A DNA stretch of 63,996 nucleotides, counting the filler, from Collodictyon triciliatum (Eukaryota): NCBI GenBank assembly GCA_043381765.1. It is 17 parts of 17 records of this genome, joined end to end, with 100 filler letters (N's around TTAATTAATTAA, not from the genome) between each part and the next. Parts side by side here need not be neighbours in the genome. Positions count along the whole stretch, not along the records: positions 60,478 to 63,996 come from JBHJMP010007191.1; 16 more parts are not named here. One strand, written 5' to 3'. Shown piece by piece: positions 32,003 through 63,996 of this stretch (positions are counted from its first letter, which is position 1; the number at the start of each line of letters is the position of its first letter). Under the pieces are notes generated by a model. The model ran no database searches. It was not told the DNA's origin and saw nothing but the letters and a program-made list of their open reading frames with translations. The position numbers and the translations under genes are program-made.

Positions 32003-32605
32003 AGTATCAAGGCAGTCATTGTTGCGTATCCGAAACGATAATCCAAAGCAAAGGCATCACAAGAATCAGCGCCCACCAAAGATAGTCCGTTTATCCCGCT
32101 CCAGCCTGTCGCACCGAGAACCAAGGAGCAAGAGCAAATACCACAAGTCGAATCCGAGCTTAGAAACTTCACACACCAATGACAGTCCGAGCAAGCAGAA
32201 GCGTATGTTTCTAAAACCACAAACGCGCATCCATACTCCGGTTAAGCAAAGTCCACTGCCAAATACGCATGGTTCTGAAACCAGGGGACGGTCAAGTGCC
32301 ACCTCCGATAATACCAGACAAACAACAACATATCGCGTTCTGTCTGAGTCGCCCAGCAAGAAACGTAAGGAAAGTGACCCGTTGTCCACTCATAAGACGC
32401 ATCCTGTGGAATGAAATAGGATGTACGGCTTGTCCGAGATAGACAGCTGAAAGGTCTTGTTGGAATCGATTCTTGAAGTAACAGCCATGCGCTTACTTTC
32501 ATCGACCCGACAACTTTATCCGCTCTTTTACAAGTGTCGAATACAATCAGAAATCGCGTTGGAGTTGAATCACCTGGGAAGAATAGTCTGCGTGAGAGAA
32601 TACTT
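32003..32605 (+). mobile_element. Repeat family A copy, 5'-truncated
   Basis: Homologous to 52095-52700. Runs into an expanded pyrimidine tract at the contig end. Confidence 0.82.
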
Positions 32606-32879
32606 TCTTTTTTTTTCCTTTTTTTCTTTTTTCTTTTTTCTTTTTTCTTTTTTCTTTTTTCTTTTTTCTTTTTTCTTTTTTCTTTTTTCTTTTTTCTTTT
32701 TTCTTTTTTCTTTTTTCTTTTTTCTTTTTTCTTTTTTCTNNNNNNNNNNNNNNNNNNNNNNNNNNNNNNNNNNNNNNNNNNNNTTAATTAATTAANNNNN
32801 NNNNNNNNNNNNNNNNNNNNNNNNNNNNNNNNNNNNNNNCCCCCCCCCCCCCAAAAAAAAAAAAAAAAAAAATTCAGGC

Positions 32880-34739: not shown

Positions 34740-35840
34740 GAAAATGTCTGCATAAAAGAACTGGCTGCCCCTGCTCTGGTGCGCTTGTGTGAGGACTACG
34801 TTAACTGTGCCCGTCGTTAGGGAACACCCCAATAAACGATGGGACTTCTGAGGAGAGAAAATCCAAGAAGTCTATCAGGATGTGGTAATGAACTCGCATG
34901 AGTATTACCATGAACCATCCCCCAGGTAATTGCACAAGTGGCCGAGCAACATGCCTGACAAGATATCTGTAACATTCGCCTGCTGCATCCTCTGATTACC
35001 CTCTAACCTTCGAATACCAATCCCAGTCCATTCCTTTATCTTGTGAGGCACCCCGACCCACAAGATGCTCTCTGAGCTTGATTACGCTCCCAACCGACTC
35101 AGCGCGTCTGATATCCTGTTTGGCCCATAATACCAAACGACCCACGACTCTAGAATACTCTGGACAGTCACAAGGGGACATATGCTGCAGTTCTTATGGA
35201 GTGTGCGTGCATTCTCTCGCTCTAATGGGTCACCCGAACGAGAAATCAATGTATCGAGGCTGGAAAGCCTCGTGCAATACAGCTTCCTGAACAGTCTGCT
35301 GAAACACGCTCGCATTCTTCGCTACTCTGACCGCAAGCGAAGGGGGATGTGGGAATGTGTCGTAACATATCTCCCACAACCAATCAACCAGTTGGGACGC
35401 CCACCTGACCAACTCGCTATCACTGACTTCTTTCCAGTGCTAGCCTCTCCACGGTAGTGTCTTCCCCTACTCACGTTTGCTCTCGCCCATGCGCTCCATC
35501 CCGCCCCTTTGTATGGCATAACCTCGCTACACTTTGAATCGAATAAAGGAAAAAAAATCTTGTGAGGCACCCCACAAACACCTTTTATTCACACCCACCC
35601 TGGTTCACCTGGGTTGAAAGCGGCTATTACCACCAACCGGCTTAGCCGCCATGGTTGCTCACCATTTCCCTTGCTCCTGAAGTTTTCGCGTTGTGTGTTT
35701 TCCCGCTTCTTTAAGTGTACCGCCAGCCTGGACGATACTCTGTAAGCTGCACAAACAAGAAGAGGGACTACGACAGTGTCAAAAAGTCCATCGAAGAAGA
35801 GCACCGCAGACAGCTTCAGCACCTACCGCCAACCCTGTTG
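34740..35840 (+). mobile_element. Possible degenerate LINE ORF1/gag relic interrupted by the family B insertion
   Basis: Frameshifted zinc-knuckle-like FFKC/RQPGRYSVSC at about 35705-35750 and RRM-like VCIKELAAP...EDYV at about 34745. Many stops. Confidence 0.3.
35055..35556 (+). mobile_element. 5'-truncated LINE family B insertion with 17-bp target-site duplication
   Basis: ATCTTGTGAGGCACCCC at 35038-35054 and 35557-35573 flanks an ORF2 3' end, UTR and A-tail homologous to 24845-25444. Confidence 0.93.
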
Positions 35841-36486: not shown

Positions 36487-37192
36487 AGAAAAGGAAAGAA
36501 AAGGAAAATAAAAAGAAAATAAAAAGAAAATAAAAAGAAAATGAAAAGAAAATAAAAAGAAAATAAAAAGAAAATGAAAAGAAAATGAAAAGAAAATAAA
36601 AAGAAAAGGAAAATAAAAAGAAAAGAAAATAAAATGAAAATAAAATGAAAATAAAAGGAAAGAAAAGAAAAAGAAAAGAAAAATAAAATAAAAGAAAAGA
36701 AAAAAGAAAAAGAAAAATAAAAAGAAAAGAAAAGAAAAGTGAAAAGAAAATGAAAAGAAAATGAAAAGAAAATGAAAAGAAAATGAAAAGAAAAGAAAAA
36801 AAAGAAAATAAAAAGAAATGAAAAGAAAAAAAGAAATAGAAAAAGAGCAAGAAAAAGAGCAAGGAAAAGAGCAAGAAAAAGAGCAAGAAAAAGAGCAAGA
36901 AAAAGAAAAAGAAAAAGAAAAAGAAAAAGAAAAAGAAAAAGAAAAAGAAAAAAGAAAAAGAAAAAGAAAAAGAAAAAGAAAAAGAAAAAGAAAAAGAAAA
37001 AGAAAAAGAAAAAGAAAAGAAAAGAAAAGAAAAGAAAAAGAAAAAGAAAAAGAAAAGAAAAGAAAAGAAAAGAAAAGAAAAGAAAAGAAAAGAAAAAGAA
37101 GAAAAGAAAAGAAAAAGAAAAAAAAGAAAAAAAAGAAAAAAAAGAAAAGAAATAGAAATAGAAAAGAATAGAAAAGAAAAGAAAAGAAAAGA
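36487..37192. repeat. Long A/G-rich compound microsatellite (GAAAA, GAAAAA, GAAAAT units)
   Basis: About 700 bp of purine-rich simple repeats. Confidence 0.9.
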
Positions 37193-57061: not shown

Positions 57062-60000
57062 TTATATTGGCGTTCAAACTTCTCCGAGATAAACTTAATC
57101 TCCAGGTCGAGCTGGTTATTTGAAGGAGCCGCAAGTGCTTGTGATTCTGGAGCGTGCCGCTGTCCTTTGCCTCTGTCCACAACATTCGGCGATTGTTGCT
57201 GCTTGCTCCCTTCAGACAACTGATTCACAGACCTCTGCAAATCCGTGTACAGACGAGTCAGCCTTTCTACCGACTGGCCCAGATAAGAAGCATCGTGCGA
57301 CTCGTCTTCGACTCTGTATGCAACTTTGCTCGCCACTGTCTGCGGATATGAGCGGGGTTCGGATAGCAATGTTCGTACATCCTGTGACAGCGCATCATGA
57401 TTCACCTTCACAACCTCCATGTCACCCACAATCGCGTTGGTCTTCGCGGTGATTCTGGCCTCCGAATCGGCATGGCCCGCAGCGAGCGAATCCACAAGCC
57501 GGGTGAGCTGTTCGAATCTCTGCTTTGTAACCGAGTCTGCCTTGAGCGACTCAATATCTGCCTGGGCACTTTGGATGCTGTTGAAGAGAATGCTGTTATG
57601 TCTGCTGATATTGATTGTTTCCTTCTCGTGGCCCTCTTTCCACACACGAAATTCCTTGGAATCCATTTTTTGGTCCCGCAAGTCTCGCATGTCAGTTTGG
57701 TATCTTTTTGTGAGGATGTCAAGCTGTTCCTTGGCGAGTCCAATGGTCTCCTGAAGCTGTGAACGGTCCCGGTCGACATCTGCCTTCCACGAAAAGAGTT
57801 CAGAGTATTGCTGCAGATTGGCCTTGGCCATAGTTTCTTTAACCATCTGCAAGTCGTTGGAAAAAGCTACCACCTGGGACCGCAGCTGGGCTGCTGGGCC
57901 CTCGTTCGCCTCACGATGCATGGCCTTCACACTATCACCCAAGGAATCGATTGCCCGCCTCTGCTCCGACAAGCCATTTTCTAGTATTGCTTGACGATTT
58001 CCGATGTGCTCAAGCGTATTTGTGTGCTTCTCGAGTGTTTGGCTGTTCATTTTGCGCTCTTTCTCTATGTCTCGTTTCCATCGGAGCACATCCTGGATTT
58101 GCTGTGTTGTGTTGGACTCGATGGTCTGGATGTTGTTTGACTCGCTGGAGATGCTTTCCTTCATGGCCTGCGATTCCTGCTGCAGCTTTGCGATGATTTC
58201 AGAATGCAGTGAAAATTCTCGGTGTCGAGCCCTCTTCTCGGTGTCCAGCTGTCCTCTCAGGTCATCCACTTTGTTACTGAGTGACGAAACGATACCTGTG
58301 GTTATGACAGTACTCGTGTTGAATTAAGAGAAAAAGAGAAAATAAAATATGAATTTGAGATGAAATGCGAAATTAAAACGTTGAATGAATCACAAATTAA
58401 ATACTAATAATCGTCACGTGCCATACTGATGAGAATAGTAAAGAACTGAACTTAATCCTGTGGGGGAAAAAAATGAATATATTTACCTAACAACCGAGAC
58501 ATTGATATCTCGGACGCATTTGAATTCTCCATACGAGAATCCTGATTGGTAAGCACATCATGATGAACCTCTCCTCCATTTACAGAAGCCTTTGTATAGC
58601 TCGTTTTTTCTTTTCGCGAAGTCGACTCAGTTGCAGACATGACCACAATACTAGCAACACTGTCTGGATTCTCTGTCATTTTTCTGCTCTCGCTGGCATT
58701 GCCATTCATACCTACGTAAATATCATCGGAATCGTTAGCAGCATCTTCCTCGCCGTGGTCAGACGCATCGCGAAACTTTGATGGGGCCCGCTCGATTCGA
58801 AAAAGTTGAGAGGGTCGCCGGCCAGTCTCTGCGATGGACTTTGCCTCGGACACAGGGGCCTCGTCGGGGAACTCAGCCGCAAGCCACGGGTGGCGCTTGA
58901 TTTCGGCCAGAGTGATGCGGGTGTCGGGGTCCGGCTGCAGAATGGCGCGGATGAGATCCTTCACAGACTCGGAGCCGTGGCGAGGCGGATGGTAGCGGCC
59001 GGAGATAATGCGCTGGCAAAGCATGTGCTGGTTGCTCTCATCAAAGGGAAACGAGCCGTTCATGACCGCGTAGAGGATGACGCCGATGGCCCACACGTCC
59101 ACGGCCGGGGTGTACGGCTGCCCAAGCAGCATTTCGGGCGAGTTGTAAGTGGGCGAGCCGCAGATGGTTTTGAGCAGATCCGCGTCGCCTCCGCTTCCCA
59201 GGATGGAGTTGGACAGCCCAAAGTCTGTGATCTTGACGGCGTTGTTTGTGTCGAGGAGGATGTTTTCGAGCTTGAGGTCTCTGTGCACAATCTGGTTGCG
59301 GTGGCAATGATCGACTGCGTCGATGATCTGGTGGATGATAGAGCGCGCTTCGGCCTCGGACAGGAGCGTGCGTTTGATGGTGTAGTCCAAGAGATCTCCG
59401 TTGTGTGCATACTCCAGTACAAGGTAGATGCGCTGGTTCTCCTCCATCACGCCAATCATCTGGATGATGTGACGATGGTGCAGCCTCTTGAGCGCCTCGA
59501 TTTCCCGCTTGATTCGCTCCATCCCGTTCATGGCGTTCACCTTGGATTTGTGGTAAATCTTGATAGCCGCCTCTTGGTTTGTCTGCGTGTGCACTGCGAG
59601 TCGCACCTTGCCAAAGCCTCCTTCTCCAATCAATCGTCCGAGTCGCCACTGCCCAACGATACGTCCTTCTTCCTCACCACTGGATTGCAGCTGATGCTGT
59701 TGCTGTTGTTGCTGTTGTTGCTGTTGGGTTGCTTGAGATTGTGATTGATGCGGTGATGGTGATATTTGCTGGTGGGTTGCTTGAGCTTGAGATTGATGCG
59801 GTGATGGCGATATTTGTGATTGGTGTGGTGATGAATGTGTTTGGTGTGGTGATTGAGGCTGTAATTGGGTGGCGATCTGCGTGTTTGTTGGGCTCGGAGT
59901 AGAAGGGATGGTTGAATGAGGTGATGAGACTGTCATGTGGGAAGCACTGCCTTGATGGGTCTGATGAGTCTGATGAGGCTGATGAGGCTGATGAGTCTGA

Positions 60001-60173
60001 TGAGTCTGATGAGTTTGATGAGTTTGATGAGTTTGATGAGTTTGATGAGTTTGATGAGGCTGTCGATTGGGTACTGCCACATTGGCATTGGAGGGCATCG
60101 ACCCAGCCGGCATGCGCGAGGGAACCGCGTATTGCTGAAACGACGGGCGCGAGTTTGAGTAGTACGGAAACAT
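57062..60173 (-). CDS. CAMKL (AMPK/MARK-related) Ser/Thr kinase with Q/H/S/P-rich N-terminus and long C-terminal coiled coil, 3'-partial (exons about 60173-58487 and 58295-57062)
   Basis: IGEGGFGKV, AAIK, HRDLKLENILLD, DFGLSN, LKTICGSPTYNSPE and DVWAIGVILY. An in-phase intron joins a coiled-coil exon of about 410 aa. Confidence 0.92.
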
Positions 60174-60324
60174 GTGGAGGTGCCCTATACTTTGTCAATA
60201 ATAGAATCCGTCTTGAAGAAAGCCCAATATTAAAAAAAAAACATAAGAAACGAAGAAATATCTATAACAAAACAAATAAAACGAGCCAACATCTCCACCA
60301 TCCTGCACAAAATTGAAAGGAAGA

Positions 60325-60368
<44 letters not shown>

Positions 60369-60477
60369 AAAGAAGAANNNNNNNNNNNNNNNNNNNNNNN
60401 NNNNNNNNNNNNNNNNNNNNNTTAATTAATTAANNNNNNNNNNNNNNNNNNNNNNNNNNNNNNNNNNNNNNNNNNNN

Positions 60478-62530
60478 ATGGGAACATTCGAAGCCCAATT
60501 CCCTGTTTATCGAGCAACGGAGTCTGCATCACACGCAAAGACTGCAAAGGCTCTGCACTATGCCGGAATGTGACGAAGTCTGCCTCACACAAGACCCACG
60601 AAGGCTCTCCGCTATGCCGGAATATGACGAAGTCTGCCTCATACAAGACCCGCAAAGGATGTGCGTTATGCCGGAATGTGACGAAGTCTGCCTCACACAA
60701 GACCCGCAAAGGCTCTCCACTGTGCCCGAATACGACGAAGTCTGCTTTACACAAGACACACAACCCTCGAAGGCTCTCCACTATGCCGGGATGCGACGCA
60801 GTCTGCTCCACACACACTATACGCGAAGGTTCTCCACTATACCGGAATACGACACAGTCTGCTTCACACACGCAAAGAACAGAGGCTCTGCACTATGCCA
60901 GGATGTGACGCTCTCTTCACACACAACCCTCAAAGGCCCTCCACTGTGCCGAATACGACGAAGTCTGCTTTACACAAGACACACAGAGGCCATCCACTAT
61001 GCCGGATTACGACGCAGTTTGCTTCACACAGAACCGCGAAGGCTCTCCAATATGCCGGGATGTGAAGAAATCTGCTTCGCACACACAACCCTCAAAGGCC
61101 ATCCACTATGCCGGAATACGACGCAGTCTGCTTCGCACACAAGACACACAGAGGCTCTCCACTATGCCGAACGTCGACGCAGTCTGCTTCACACAAGACC
61201 CACAAAGGCTCTCCACTATGCCCGAATACGACGAAGTCTGCTTCACAGACACACAACCCGCAAAGGCTCTGTACTATGCTGGGATGAGACGAAGTCTGCT
61301 TCACACACAAGACACACAGAGGCTCTCCATTACGCCCGAATACGACGCAGTCTGCTTCACACACAAGACACACAAAGGATGTGCACTATGCCGGAATACG
61401 ACACAGTCTGCTTCATACACAATCCTCGAAGGCTCTCCACTATGCCGGAATACGACACAGTCTGCTCCACACACAACCCTCAAAAGGCTCTCCACTATGC
61501 CGAACGTCGACGAAGTCTGCTTCACACACAACCCGCGAAGGCTCCACTATGCCAGAATACAACGAAGTCTGCTTCACACACACAAGACCCGCAAAGGATC
61601 TCTATCATGCCCGGAATACGACGAAGTCTGCTTCACACAAGACCCACAAAGGATCTCCACTATGCCGGAATACGACGCAGTCTGCTCCACAAGATACACA
61701 ATCCTCGAAGGCTCTCCACTATGCCGAACGTCGACGAAGTCTGCCTCACCCAACCCCCGAAGGCTCTCCACTATGCCGGAATACGACGCAGCCTGCTTCA
61801 CACACACAAGACCCGCAAAGGATCTCTATCATGCCCGGAATACGACGAAGTCTGCTTCACACAAGACCCACAAAGGATCTCCACTATGCCGGAATACGAC
61901 GCAGCCTGCTTCACACACACAAGACCCACAAAGGATCTCCACTATGCCGGAATACGACGAAGTCTGCTTCACACACCCAAAGTCAGCAAGGCTCTGCATT
62001 ATGCCCGGATACGAAAGCCGTAAGTCTTGTGCAATCAGATATTCTATTTTTTATCTTCGCTTCGACCACCTCGCATTGTATTTGCATATACTTAGTCAAT
62101 GTTTTTTTATTGTAATCCATACAGAATGGTATATTCATGCATGGAGTAAAAAAATTGAATTTTTCTTGTGTAAATGGTATTATGTGTCAGTTATGGGGAA
62201 CATTCGAAGCCCAATTCGCTGATTATTGAGTAACGAATCGTGGACACACACAGACTGCAAGGCTTTCCACTATGCCCGAATACGAAAACCGTAAGTCTTA
62301 AGCAATCAGATATTTTATTTTACACCTATTCGTATTTTGAGCACTTTGTTTTGTACTTGCACATACTTAGTCGATGTTTTTATTATAATTCATATAGAAG
62401 GTTTATTTATGCATAAAGCACAAAAAATGAATTTCCCTTGTCATAATATAGCATTATGTGTCGGGCTATGGGGACATTCGAAGCCCAATTCCCTGCTTAT
62501 TGAGCAACAAAGTCGAATCGCGGACACGAG
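60478..62530 (+). repeat. Outer 275-bp tandem unit (starts 60478, 62193, 62468) containing the minisatellite monomer
   Basis: ATGGG(G)A(A)CATTCGAAGCCCAATT recurs three times. 62021-62192 is homologous to 62291-62467. Confidence 0.85.
60547..62020 (+). repeat. Minisatellite, about 27 units of roughly 51-61 bp (consensus AAGGCTCTCCACTATGCCGGAATACGACGAAGTCTGCTTCACAC-ACAAGACCCGCA)
   Basis: Units counted by eye. Length variation is concentrated in the AC-rich tail. Confidence 0.95.
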
Positions 62531-63319
62531 ACACAACATATTCCCGTCCATGTGCAGACGCGAAGAACTTCAGGTGAGTATCCCATACAGACATTTTTAT
62601 CATTAAGAGAATTTCTTATTTTCTCCATTATCCATTACAACAATTCGAAATACTTNNNNNNNNNNNNNNNNNNNNNNNNNNNNNNNNNNNNNNNNNNNNN
62701 NNNNNNNNNNNNNNNNNNNNNNNNNNNNNNNNNNNNNNNNNNNNNNNNNNNNNNNNNNNNNNNNNNNNNNNNNNNNNNNNNNNNNNNNNNNNNNNNNNNN
62801 NNNNNNNNNNNNNNNNNNNNNNNNNNNNNNNNNNNNNNNNNNNNNNNNNNNNNNNNNNNNNNNNNNNNNNNNNNNNNNNNNNNNNNNNNNNNNNNNNNNN
62901 NNNNNNNNNNNNNNNNNNNNNNNNNNNNNNNNNNNNNNNNNNNNNNNNNNNNNNNNNNNNNNNNNNNNNNNNNNNNNNNNNNNNNNNNNNNNNNNNNNNN
63001 NNNNNNNNNNNNNNNNNNNNNNNNNNNNNNNNNNNNNNNNNNNNNNNNNNNNNNNNNNNNNNNNNNNNNNNNNNNNNNNNNNNNNNNNNNNNNNNNNNNN
63101 NNNNNNNNNNNNNNNNNNNNNNNNNNNNNNNNNNNNNNNNNNNNNNNNNNNNNNNNNNNNNNNNNNNNNNNNNNNNNNNNNNNNNNNNNNNNNNNNNNNN
63201 NNNNNNNNNNNNNNNNNNNNNNNNNNNNNNNNNNNNNNNNNNNNNNNNNNNNNNNNNNNNNNNNNNNNNNNNNNNNNNNNNNNNNNNNNNNNNNNNNNNN
63301 NNNNNNNNNNNNNNNNNNN

Positions 63320-63944
63320 TGGATGCGCTTTTGGAAGAAGTCCGGAAACTCTCTTTCTATCCAATAGCTGATATTGCCACTCTGAAAAGCTCCACAGAAC
63401 TGAATCTCAGTATCAAGAATCTGTCATCTGTGCCGCCTGGTGTTTTTCTGTTGACTGGTCTGAAAGATTTGTATCTTCGTGGCAATCAGTTGTCATCACT
63501 ACCTGCACAAATATCGTGTTTGACTGGTCTCACATGGCTTTCTGTTAATGGAAATCAGCTGTCATCACTACCTGCACAAATATCGTGTTTGACTGGTCTC
63601 AGTGTACTTTATGTTGGTGGCAATCAGCTGTCGTCGCTACCTGCACAAATATCGTGTTTGACTGGTCTCAGTGTTCTTGCTGTTTATAACAATCCGGTAT
63701 GTTTTTATTCATATATTATATTACTATTTATGTTTAAAAGAAAAATGACTGACGACGATACACACAGATGAAGGAGCTTCCAGCACAGATCACAGCACTC
63801 ACAAATCTGAAAGAACTGTATATAAACGCTGGATGCACACAAACCATAAAGAGAGCCCCGCGTGGCATCTCAAATCTCCCCTGCTGGAATAACACAGGAT
63901 ACGGTGACAACAAACACATCCGCGCTCTGCAGCTCTACGACCCC
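63320..63944 (+). CDS. LRR protein, paralog of the 22868 gene (exons to 63696 and 63768-63944), partial
   Basis: ALLEEVRK N-cap, 23-aa LRRs with 69-bp period, identical intron positions and the same ..KRAPRGI..WNNT..LQLYDP cap exon. Confidence 0.9.
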
Positions 63945-63996
63945 GTAAGCACACATCCACCCCCAACCCCCACATACACAACACAGGACACAACTA

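Follow-up and report, generated by a model that had tools for sequence, protein, structure and literature searches.

The window, the whole stretch of 63,996 nucleotides that was analysed, holds two members of one protist leucine-rich repeat (LRR) gene family, referred to here as gene A and gene B. It chains approximately 17 unlinked contigs of about 3.5 kb each, and 16 linkers of the form N44-TTAATTAATTAA-N44 were counted. Since the two genes lie on separate linker-bounded contigs, no physical neighbourhood of A and B is implied, and the sequence truly linked to each gene amounts to only about 3.5 kb. The paralogue at 22868 named in the original prediction is indeed a family member, but it sits on a contig of its own and not near gene B. 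Internal N gaps adjoin both genes, and their features are as follows.

21797-21896 and 25445-25544: linkers bounding the contig of gene A, located by linker search
22868..23110, plus strand: gene A exon 1, comprising the ATG, the N-terminal helix, unit 0 (22967-23035) and the canonical cassette A1 (23036-23104)
23111-23230, plus strand: gene A intron 1
23231..23425, plus strand: gene A exon 2, the cap, from the cap alignment
23426..23523, plus strand: gene A intron 2, which ends in TG, not AG, if exon 3 begins at 23524, as we infer
23524..24420, plus strand: gene A exon 3, comprising a linker, a degenerate protein-kinase domain and the start of a conserved C-terminal tail, interrupted by a 300-N gap
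60378..60477, no strand: contig linker N44-TTAATTAATTAA-N44, after which the contig of gene B begins at 60478
63320-63996, plus strand: gene B, truncated by the window end
63320..63414, plus strand: gene B exon 1, N-terminal helix region, from its translation, which aligns with gene A residues 6-33
63415..63483, plus strand: gene B LRR unit 0, old and diverged, framework KNLSSVPPGVFLLTGL, strand KDLYLRG
63484..63552, plus strand: canonical cassette B1, 48-nt framework NQLSSLPAQISCLTGL and 21-nt strand TWLSVNG
63553..63621, plus strand: canonical cassette B2, strand SVLYVGG
63622..63690, plus strand: canonical cassette B3, strand SVLAVYN
63697..63767, plus strand: gene B intron 1, GT..AG, 71 nt, from spliced contigs of relatives
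63768..63944, plus strand: gene B exon 2, the irregular LRR cap with its RAPRGIxxLPCWNN motif and two variable loops, from translation, cap alignment, family profile search and the fold of a relative
63945..63996, plus strand: start of gene B intron 2, GTAAGCACACA, common to gene A, up to the window end

The start codon of gene B is lost within a gap of 664 Ns (62656-63319), and its kinase lies beyond the window end, so that a kinase is visible in gene A only. Units 0-3 form a single unbroken reading frame (63322-63696), and exon 1 closes after B3 with AAT CCG (N P, 63691-63696). The canonical units had been predicted to start at 63484, 63553 and 63622, and both the register and the tandem repeat detected by TRF (period 69, 3.0-3.3 copies, 85-89% matches) bear this out. 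A 33-nt core of the framework occurs in three exact copies and in one with three mismatches (23051), with none expected from 100 shuffles. All six strand heptads, including RGLGLAC and TYLGVYG of gene A, read as reported earlier. Exon 1 scores 55.2 bits against Pfam LRR_8 (cut-off 27) and is predicted by AF2 (pLDDT 97.5) to carry one strand per 23 residues, formed by heptad positions 2-4 of each unit (residues 49-51, 72-74, 95-97 and 118-120). The Pfam profile and the single strand per unit place the repeats in the typical 23-residue LRR class (LxxLxLxxNxLxxLPxxIxxL), and in the AF2 model the variation falls on beta-strand and ascending-loop residues, the face to which it had been assigned. 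Splicing of intron 1 is documented in relatives: a cassette end is joined straight to exon 2 in 11 contigs (runs X2, X3 and X4), which start from different cassette positions and have other strand letters and cassette numbers, and one X4 contig omits precisely the 71 nt of gene B intron 1.

Gene A aligns with gene B across a 46-residue gap, equivalent to the two units fewer that had been noticed. The cap exons of the two genes diverge, as anticipated, mainly in two loops, among them EYQGRQ versus NAGCTQ. Exon 1 of gene A reaches 29.1 bits for LRR_8 (cut-off 27), and exon 3 matches Pfam Pkinase with an E-value of 9e-41. Canonical GT-AG joining of exons 2 and 3 gives no frame-keeping combination, the TG acceptor being the only in-frame option; an RNA-type contig of a relative reads ...TACGATCCC followed at the junction by GTTGCAGCCA, agreeing with 23524-23533 at 9 of 10 bases. 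The kinase retains DFG and PPE, but it is without approximately 20 residues including the VAVK (beta3) lysine, and HRS replaces HRD. The active-kinase signature (beta3 Lys of VAIK, HRD Asp, DFG) is incomplete, and gene A looks like a decayed copy that is non-functional as a kinase. It begins MADETALLEEVRK, in which direct reading, with no predictor used, finds no signal peptide; direct reading likewise finds no hydrophobic or membrane segment between the LRR-bearing cap region and the kinase, and no Pfam match to a Roc or COR domain was obtained in the pieces of gene A. Gene A does not have the make-up of a plant-type LRR receptor-like kinase. The earlier description as an LRR receptor kinase is therefore retained for the LRR-kinase family, whose kinase is seen in A only, while "receptor" gives way to an intracellular sensor, because signal peptide and membrane segment are both missing from gene A.

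The three cassettes of gene B are nearly identical in their frameworks and strikingly different in their strands. Comparison of B1-B3 in pairs shows 1, 2 and 3 differences between the 48-nt frameworks, all synonymous and located at framework bases 7, 12 and 15, which agrees with the near-identity even at silent sites that had been claimed for them; the corresponding counts for the 21-nt strand segments are 9, 7 and 10 (Fisher p 4e-5 to 2.5e-3). At the five exposed codons (heptad positions 1, 2, 4, 6 and 7), 6.0-8.7 of about 11.7 non-synonymous sites have changed (51-73%), as against 0 of 39 in the remaining 18 codons per unit. Whole-unit silent divergence within gene B is low (pS 0.16-0.24) compared with 0.62 for the pooled flanking coding parts of A and B (Fisher p 0.0003-0.003) and suggests that the units are young or homogenised; unit 0, by comparison between the two genes, has a pS of 0.71. 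The ratio of dN at exposed codons to dS of the unit is 4.8-9.8 for the within-B pairs, and the difference is significant in one of the three (p 0.008, 0.056 and 0.108), with tiny counts, interdependent pairs and approximately 19 silent sites per unit. Within the strand segments, pS (0.19-0.45) is no lower than in the frameworks, and pN is 0.38-0.55. Among relatives from Diphylleia rotans the framework x positions vary freely, so that the framework identity of B1-B3 points to recency and not to structural need.

The original prediction also drew attention to variable codons of the form NNY. The third base is T or C in 16 of 18 window codons at heptad positions 4, 6 and 7, compared with 139 of the 288 other codons of the family, so this part of the claim stands; the pattern is not specific, however, as 10 of the 12 codons for the invariant Leu/Val residues at positions 3 and 5 have the same ending. 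When four-fold codons alone are considered, the proportions are 9/11 versus 75/154 (p 0.057). Hand-translated strands from sequencing runs have T or C in 25 of 30 codons at positions 4, 6 and 7, and the combined window and run-derived strands give 15/15 at position 4 (6 from the window, 9 run-derived), 14/16 at position 6 and 12/17 at position 7, all counts excluding an X3 strand with an in-frame TAA at 63535 (a two-record consensus with 0.9 agreement). We regard most of the NNY appearance as a by-product of scarce silent divergence combined with amino-acid replacement: there has been little time for third bases to diverge, and third-base changes in TAT, GGT, GCT, TCT and CGT are silent or create a stop. 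The T/C content of position 4 somewhat exceeds what such a by-product predicts.

Both genes satisfy the cap-family motif ELPxxITxLxxLxxLxI-x(5-6)-xxxxRAPxGIxxLPCW ... LxLY. A profile built from the two window cap exons returned 876 protein matches at E<=1e-3; among the 150 matches listed, 23 cover nearly the whole cap, namely 19 D. rotans transcript clusters and four short genomic contigs. To judge from these comparisons, genes A and B belong to a lineage-specific LRR-cap family, in which the only named relatives among the matches listed are those of D. rotans (CRuMs). The architectures found among the cap relatives listed are LRR-cap-kinase, LRR-cap-Roc-COR and LRR-cap-RING-NHL, the relative P0207 matching Roc (E 1.8e-13) and COR-A (E 2.4e-13). 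Searches with exon 1 of gene B led away from the family: a metagenome contig scan gave three distant loci only (36-40% identity), and a near-length protein search gave 77 matches, all at or below 59% identity, of which the eight inspected are generic LRRs of the NQLSSLPAEIGxLTNL type. A fold search with a cap-bearing relative likewise returned generic LRR chains only (Leptospira LIC12234 and SHOC2). Judged mainly by titles and abstracts, no paper on this LRR-cap family in D. rotans or CRuMs was found.

Sequencing runs supplied further relatives, with 131 (X2), 126 (X3), 81 (X4) and 7 (X1) contigs of at least 80% likeness. Runs X2-X4 are of RNA type, and no run carries half or more of the sampled words of the stretch; runs X5-X20, with shares of 0.08-0.12, stood outside the contig comparison. 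The contigs repeat the framework-strand-framework arrangement (joint 63534 to 63483), and 16 of the 17 variant places listed within 63484-63690 fall among the 63 variable bases of these 207, although the choice of contigs by framework likeness biases the sample towards conserved frameworks. Two further points are borne out: cassette number differs between members, as seen in the A-B gap and in the run-contig joints, and the family has a fair number of members, with transcripts in relatives, as seen in the D. rotans transcript clusters and the run contigs.

In our view these patterns most probably arose, with a probability of roughly 0.6, when the 69-nt unit was recently duplicated in tandem and the concave face then came under diversifying selection; this would be ordinary evolution of an LRR sensor. 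The layout of the family is an N-terminal helix, one old LRR and a variable count of canonical 23-residue units, followed by the irregular LRR cap, which a separate exon encodes, the protein-kinase domain and the conserved C-terminal tail. B1-B3 would have arisen by recent in-frame duplication of the unit, caused by unequal recombination or by slippage and perhaps aided by exchange between paralogues, and their frameworks would for this reason be near-identical even at silent sites. Afterwards, the residues at heptad positions 1, 2, 4, 6 and 7 would have been replaced far faster than silent change accumulated, which suggests diversifying selection on a putative ligand-binding concave face, and scant time for third-base change would have left the NNY look. 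The family may function as a cytosolic sensor repertoire in which LRR recognition is coupled to a kinase output or, in relatives, to Roc-COR or RING-NHL.

The contrast between frameworks and strands could also reflect homogenisation and not fast strand change. Under such concerted evolution, old cassettes would have had their frameworks evened out by short-tract gene conversion or unequal exchange while selection kept the strands different. The comparison of A1 with the B cassettes is relevant here, as its pS (0.21-0.43) lies below the 0.62 of the rest of the genes, and this closeness indicates exchange between paralogues as much as simple recency; it is significant for B2 (0.29, p 0.012) and B3 (0.21, p 0.0017), but A1 versus B1 is indistinguishable from the flanks (p 0.19), and each unit offers only the 19 or so silent sites. 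Numerous X2-X4 contigs match the framework bases and members differ in cassette number, as homogenisation would have it, yet contigs chosen by likeness favour conserved frameworks, and gene conversion would need to act on successive 48-nt frameworks while sparing each 21-nt strand between them. We consider this account unlikely.

Improbable, in our assessment, is that relaxed constraint alone explains the strands, with omega near 1 at exposed positions, birth-and-death drift and gene A as a dying copy. Such drift would fit the similarity of pN and pS within strand segments, the two non-significant within-B tests and the state of gene A (no beta3 lysine, HRS for HRD, a TG acceptor). It would not account for exposed dN several-fold above whole-unit dS, nor for the absence of non-synonymous change at the 39 framework sites of B1-B3, given that the framework x positions are weakly constrained in D. 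rotans.

The assembly that gives gene B its cassette order is fragmented, and a short-read assembler might have stitched the array from paralogues sharing a framework, which would make the juxtaposition of identical frameworks and unrelated strands partly artificial. The contigs are short, N gaps stand right beside both genes, none of the contig pieces listed covers the entire stretch, and at position 63771 the window has A where all 22 covering contigs from four runs have G. Each framework nevertheless has silent differences of its own, reads of at least 100 nt cover a framework together with both its strands, and contigs of relatives show a like layout; we consider such a chimera highly improbable.

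A programmed process is harder still to credit, whether DGR-like RT mutagenesis of AAY codons, originally raised as a possibility, deaminase hypermutation or VLR-like somatic assembly. The T/C excess, the uniformity of position 4, the many strand variants in each run and the lack of adenine in gene B's invariant codons CTT and GTT would suit it, but B1-B3 agree at 10 of their 12 framework adenines, relatives vary at non-A bases of position 3 (CTT/TTG/CTA/CTC) and position 5 (GTT/GTA/ATT/CTT), the LRR exons of both genes are complete and open in germline sequence, and the NNY form extends to the Leu/Val codons. In the window, the cassette profile found no template repeat or extra donor cassette outside the genes' own LRR arrays, and the only trace of an RT domain was a zf-RVT remnant (50790-51299) that belongs to a different contig; as the window is a concatenation of contigs with about 3.5 kb linked to each gene, these absences carry little weight. 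It is very improbable that a deep-branching, CRuMs-like protist diversifies an intracellular LRR-kinase repertoire by exchanging cassettes somatically or clonally, or by hypermutation aimed at the five codons of the concave face; if it were true, the many strand variants per run would be products of the mechanism and not germline paralogues. No special mutagenesis machinery is required for the variation of this family.

Comparison with known systems places the family among the fast-evolving LRR sensor families with their usual mode of evolution, and by itself it reveals no new diversification mechanism. To our knowledge, DGRs occur only in prokaryotes and their viruses; the likeness to them lies in NNY-looking variable codons on a binding surface, but here the variation extends beyond adenine positions, spliceosomal introns mark the gene as nuclear and eukaryotic, and the window yielded neither RT nor template. 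Germline VLR genes of the lamprey are incomplete, and their somatic assembly draws on donor cassettes at their flanks. As here, their LRR modules combine a conserved framework with hypervariable concave residues and vary in number, but the LRR exons of A and B are complete and no donor cassettes were found on their contigs. In plant NLRs and LRR-RLKs, diversifying selection acts on the exposed residues of xxLxLxx, alongside tandem duplication, unequal crossing-over, gene conversion and pseudogenes. Exposed-residue diversification, probable tandem duplication, possible exchange and an apparently decayed copy recur here, unlike NB-ARC, signal peptide, transmembrane segment and extracellular LRR, none of which was seen.

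A close parallel is offered by the candidate immune receptors of the LRR-ROCO and LRR-kinase types in Ectocarpus, where each LRR of a ROCO gene is a separate 72-nt exon and diversity arises by exon shuffling (Zambounis et al., 2012; PMC3341825). According to the same account, those receptors, too, are intracellular LRR proteins of a protist or alga whose output is a GTPase or a kinase, with variable LRR number, positively selected concave-face sites and gene birth and death (PMC3341825). The LRR-cap-Roc-COR forms among the D. rotans relatives extend the likeness to ROCO proteins. In contrast to the arrangement in Ectocarpus, the 69-nt units of gene B are contiguous in one exon and one frame, a family-specific cap exon ends the array, and the lineage is CRuMs-like and not a brown alga. 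If our reading holds, a poorly sampled, deep-branching eukaryote lineage would join the independent builders of large, fast-evolving intracellular LRR families, combining one LRR-cap recognition module with kinase, Roc-COR GTPase and RING-NHL outputs. The members of the family are candidates for innate-immunity-like recognition in a lineage of predatory flagellates.

The repeat itself is of the 23-residue SHOC2/Ras-group type, as opposed to the 24-residue plant-specific type. SHOC2, RSU1 and LRRD1 differ from the family in being conserved single-copy scaffolds with neither hypervariable strands nor a kinase. SHOC2 (E 5e-51) and LRRD1 are the best sequence matches among solved structures (PDB), and residues 81-146 of RSU1 give a weak match to the cap profile (E 6e-6).

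The window is of eukaryotic character, with a G+C content of 39% and short introns bounded by GT..AG. It is interrupted by 16 pairs of 44-N runs, each enclosing the 12 bases TTAATTAATTAA, the first at 3551-3650 and the last at 60378-60477. This sequence, which stops translation in each of the six frames, is in use as a linker for chaining contigs; the spacing is approximately 3,641-3,650 nt, with a single exception of 5,772 nt, and the sequences flanking the linkers are unrelated to each other. The window is therefore a chain of about 17 separate contigs of roughly 3.5 kb each, laid end to end, and as the linkers separate contigs of similar size, adjacency across a linker is meaningless. The contig of gene A spans 21897-25444 and that of gene B begins at 60478; the two genes are thus non-adjacent, and sequence beyond its own contig is not physically linked to either of them.

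Features of the two LRR-kinase family members, genes A and B
22868-23110: gene A exon 1 (start ATG, helix, two LRRs)
23036: start of A1, the one canonical LRR unit of gene A, in register after its unit 0
23231-23425: gene A exon 2, the cap, with intron 1 before and intron 2 after
63415-63483: gene B unit 0 (old), in register
63484, 63553 and 63622: starts of the canonical units B1, B2 and B3 of gene B, in register
63696: end of gene B exon 1
63697-63767: gene B intron 1
63768-63944: gene B exon 2

With their 23 residues per unit, the LRRs belong to the cytosolic SHOC2/Ras-group type (SHOC2 match, E 5e-51), and direct reading of gene A revealed neither a signal peptide nor a membrane segment. 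The long exon after intron 2 of gene A matches Pkinase (E 9e-41), and its C-terminal end aligns with a conserved C-terminal tail of relatives, which is SAM-like by eye, without profile confirmation. Gene B is truncated by a 664-N gap at its 5' end and by the window end at its 3' end.

The original prediction of fixed 69-bp cassettes, in which near-identical frameworks alternate with changing strands, is borne out in gene B, as are the strand sequences it gave when compared in register. TRF detects a 69-nt period with 3.0-3.3 copies, and gene B has three perfect copies of a 33-nt framework core, gene A one with 3 mismatches, against none expected by chance. Among B1-B3 the frameworks differ at 1-3 of 48 bases, every change being silent, whereas 7-10 bases differ in the 21-nt strand segments. 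In gene B exon 1 as modelled by AF2 (pLDDT 97.5), each unit forms a single strand at positions 2-4 of the seven codons of this segment, and the variable residues are therefore predicted to lie on the strand of the concave face and immediately after it.

These units appear to have a different history from the rest of the genes. At silent sites, genes A and B have diverged almost to saturation (pS 0.72 in the N-terminal part, 0.71 in the unit 0 framework and 0.54 in the cap exon; 0.62 for the pooled flanks), whereas whole-unit pS is 0.16-0.24 within gene B (Fisher p against the flanks 0.0003-0.003) and 0.21-0.43 between A1 and the B units (p 0.0017-0.19), which suggests that the canonical unit is young or has been exchanged between paralogues. 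Within gene B, the 18 non-exposed codons hold 0 of 39 non-synonymous differences, pN at the five exposed codons (positions 1, 2, 4, 6 and 7) reaches 0.51-0.73, and the ratio of dN (exposed) to dS (unit) is 4.8-9.8 (p = 0.008, 0.056 and 0.108, on small numbers and with three pairs that are not independent). Framework x positions are freely variable in Diphylleia rotans proteins, so that the framework identity of B1-B3 probably reflects short time rather than structural need; given such short time, the strand changes look selected, within the limits of small numbers and dependent pairs.

Relatives of the cassettes were also found in sequencing runs. None of the indexed runs contained half or more of the window's sampled words, and four were aligned to it at a likeness of at least 80%: X1 (7 contigs, 0 of them at least 99% alike), X2 (131 and 32), X3 (126 and 29) and X4 (81 and 24). 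A cassette is joined directly to exon 2 at 63767 in 11 contigs (X2 5, X3 2, X4 4), one X4 contig omitting precisely the 71-nt GT..AG intron, and the 7 contigs of X1, which is labelled DNA, contain no such joints; where the likeness is below 95 or the sides are short, a joint may come from other organisms or repeats. The hand-translated strands between the joint sides are EVLFVFN, TRLDVES, IGLYVSD, SVLAVCA, TRLDIFL, TLLGVSV, TDLRVCN and TYLDVCR, and loose ends in X1 add KRLGLDG and TYLDVGD. Of the 207 bases in 63484-63690, 63 are strand bases, and these account for 16 of the 17 variant places listed there (binomial 6.6e-8), a figure biased to conserved frameworks by the choice of contigs by likeness. 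At 63771 all 22 covering contigs from the four runs carry G where the window has A, which changes the second codon of the cap exon from Lys to Glu; none of the four thus contains the exact gene B. At place 63535, a loose-end consensus of X3 (2 records, agreement 0.9) places a TAA in frame at position 2 of the strand of a family member; a transcribed pseudogene or an artefact of the consensus, among other causes, could account for it.

Targeted, adenine-directed mutagenesis had been raised as a possible source of this variation, on the grounds of a preference for T/C-ending (NNY) codons. The preference itself holds at positions 4, 6 and 7 in the window (16/18 against a background of 139/288; binomial p 4e-4, for codons that share ancestry), but it extends to the invariant Leu/Val codons (10/12), and with four-fold codons only it is 9/11 against 75/154 (p 0.057). 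Third-base changes in GGT, GCT, TCT and CGT are silent, and those in TAT give a stop or a synonym; amino-acid replacement over a short time is thus expected to leave NNY in place. The strands derived from the runs are T/C-ending in 9/9 codons at position 4, 9/10 at position 6 and 7/11 at position 7, and the overall count at position 4, 15/15, slightly exceeds what this argument would lead one to expect. Adenine-directed change itself is argued against by the framework, where 10 of 12 adenines are unchanged across B1-B3, and by positions 3 and 5, which change at non-A bases among family members. Neither a template copy nor an RT was found on the contigs, which is weak evidence as only about 3.5 kb is linked to each gene.

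The cap is an irregular LRR end. In a model of P0342, a relative's protein (pLDDT 95.4), a small hairpin comes after the last LRR strand and is the first of the two loops in which the cap exons of genes A and B had been said to differ, as their alignment confirms; beyond it the chain forms the RAP strand, then short helices at LPCW, a loop whose length varies and one last strand. In sequence there is a weak resemblance between the cap and residues 81-146 of RSU1, and a fold search returned generic LRR chains only. A profile of the two window cap exons, searched against 1.84 billion representatives, gave 876 matches at E<=1e-3, the best 150 of which were examined. We kept the 23 that cover nearly the whole cap; the other 127, such as a Rivularia and an Ipomoea protein, are partial and mostly cover the first ~20, LRR-like positions. 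Among these listed matches, 19 of the 23 are EukProt transcript clusters of D. rotans, and 4 are 72-81-residue products of 523-645-nt NCBI contigs; a fifth of that kind, P0246, covers profile positions 1-41 only. At least some of these contigs read through the intron-2 donor also found in the window genes and are therefore genomic; identity among the cap exons of these contigs, and between them and those of the window, is 42-66%. In D. rotans the module occurs as LRR-cap-SH3-kinase-tail, as LRR-cap repeats with Roc-COR and as LRR-cap with RING-NHL. The best relatives of two kinases on different contigs, that of gene A (D. rotans) and an unrelated one at 58452-60194 (Rigifila ramosa), suggest that the window belongs to the CRuMs group. 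A literature search found no paper describing this LRR-cap family; the novelty lies in the lineage and in an LRR-cap module, specific to the family, whose output domains are swapped.

Gene A itself looks decayed. Its kinase, whose best relative is from D. rotans (38% identity), lacks about 20 residues present in four relatives, including the VAVK (beta3) lysine, and has HRS in place of HRD, with DFG and PPE kept. No canonical GT-AG splice joins exon 2 to the kinase in frame. In an RNA-type contig of a relative, ...TACGATCCC continues into GTTGCAGCCA, which matches gene A 23524-23533 at 9 of 10 bases, and intron 2 of gene A would accordingly end in TG instead of AG. The stretch 23426-24420 holds all three signs, and the gene may be a pseudogene, encode a pseudokinase or yield an LRR-only product.

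Taken as a whole, the finding is a real example of LRR sensor family evolution, in which one LRR unit would duplicate in frame, paralogues may exchange units, the concave face would change fast and some copies would die; a programmed diversification mechanism is improbable, and nothing observed here needs one. The closest described parallel is the LRR-ROCO and LRR-kinase system of Ectocarpus (PMC3341825), where every LRR has a 72-nt exon of its own and exon shuffling generates the diversity, in contrast to the proposed in-frame unit duplication of the present family.

Other features of the window
3865-6942, +: RING finger protein with 4x MIB_HERC2
19398-20351, -: GDP-fucose O-fucosyltransferase
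48191-49488, +: COMMD1-like gene with introns
58452-60194, -: intronless 580-residue kinase, unrelated to that of gene A (best relative Rigifila ramosa, 50% identity)
50790-51299, +: match to zf-RVT (E 5.7e-7), the tail that binds zinc in RTs of non-LTR retrotransposons, with no RT domain upstream, on another contig than either LRR gene
60517-62014: minisatellite

The minisatellite is situated some 1.3 kb upstream of gene B, on the same contig (TRF: period 54 with a consensus unit of 56 nt, 27 copies, 76% matches, 224-nt higher-order period), and yields long spurious ORFs in several frames. Dispersed repeats of 85-90% identity (18250-18936, 20674-21795, 32004-32698 and 51644-52714; also 24841-25373 and 35056-35561) recur in either orientation on different contigs, and one of them lies just downstream of the 300-N gap that cuts gene A; the ORFs tested within several copies had no Pfam match. 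Another contig opens with a long AGAAA / AAAAGAAAAGA microsatellite, some 700 nt in length (36487-37192).
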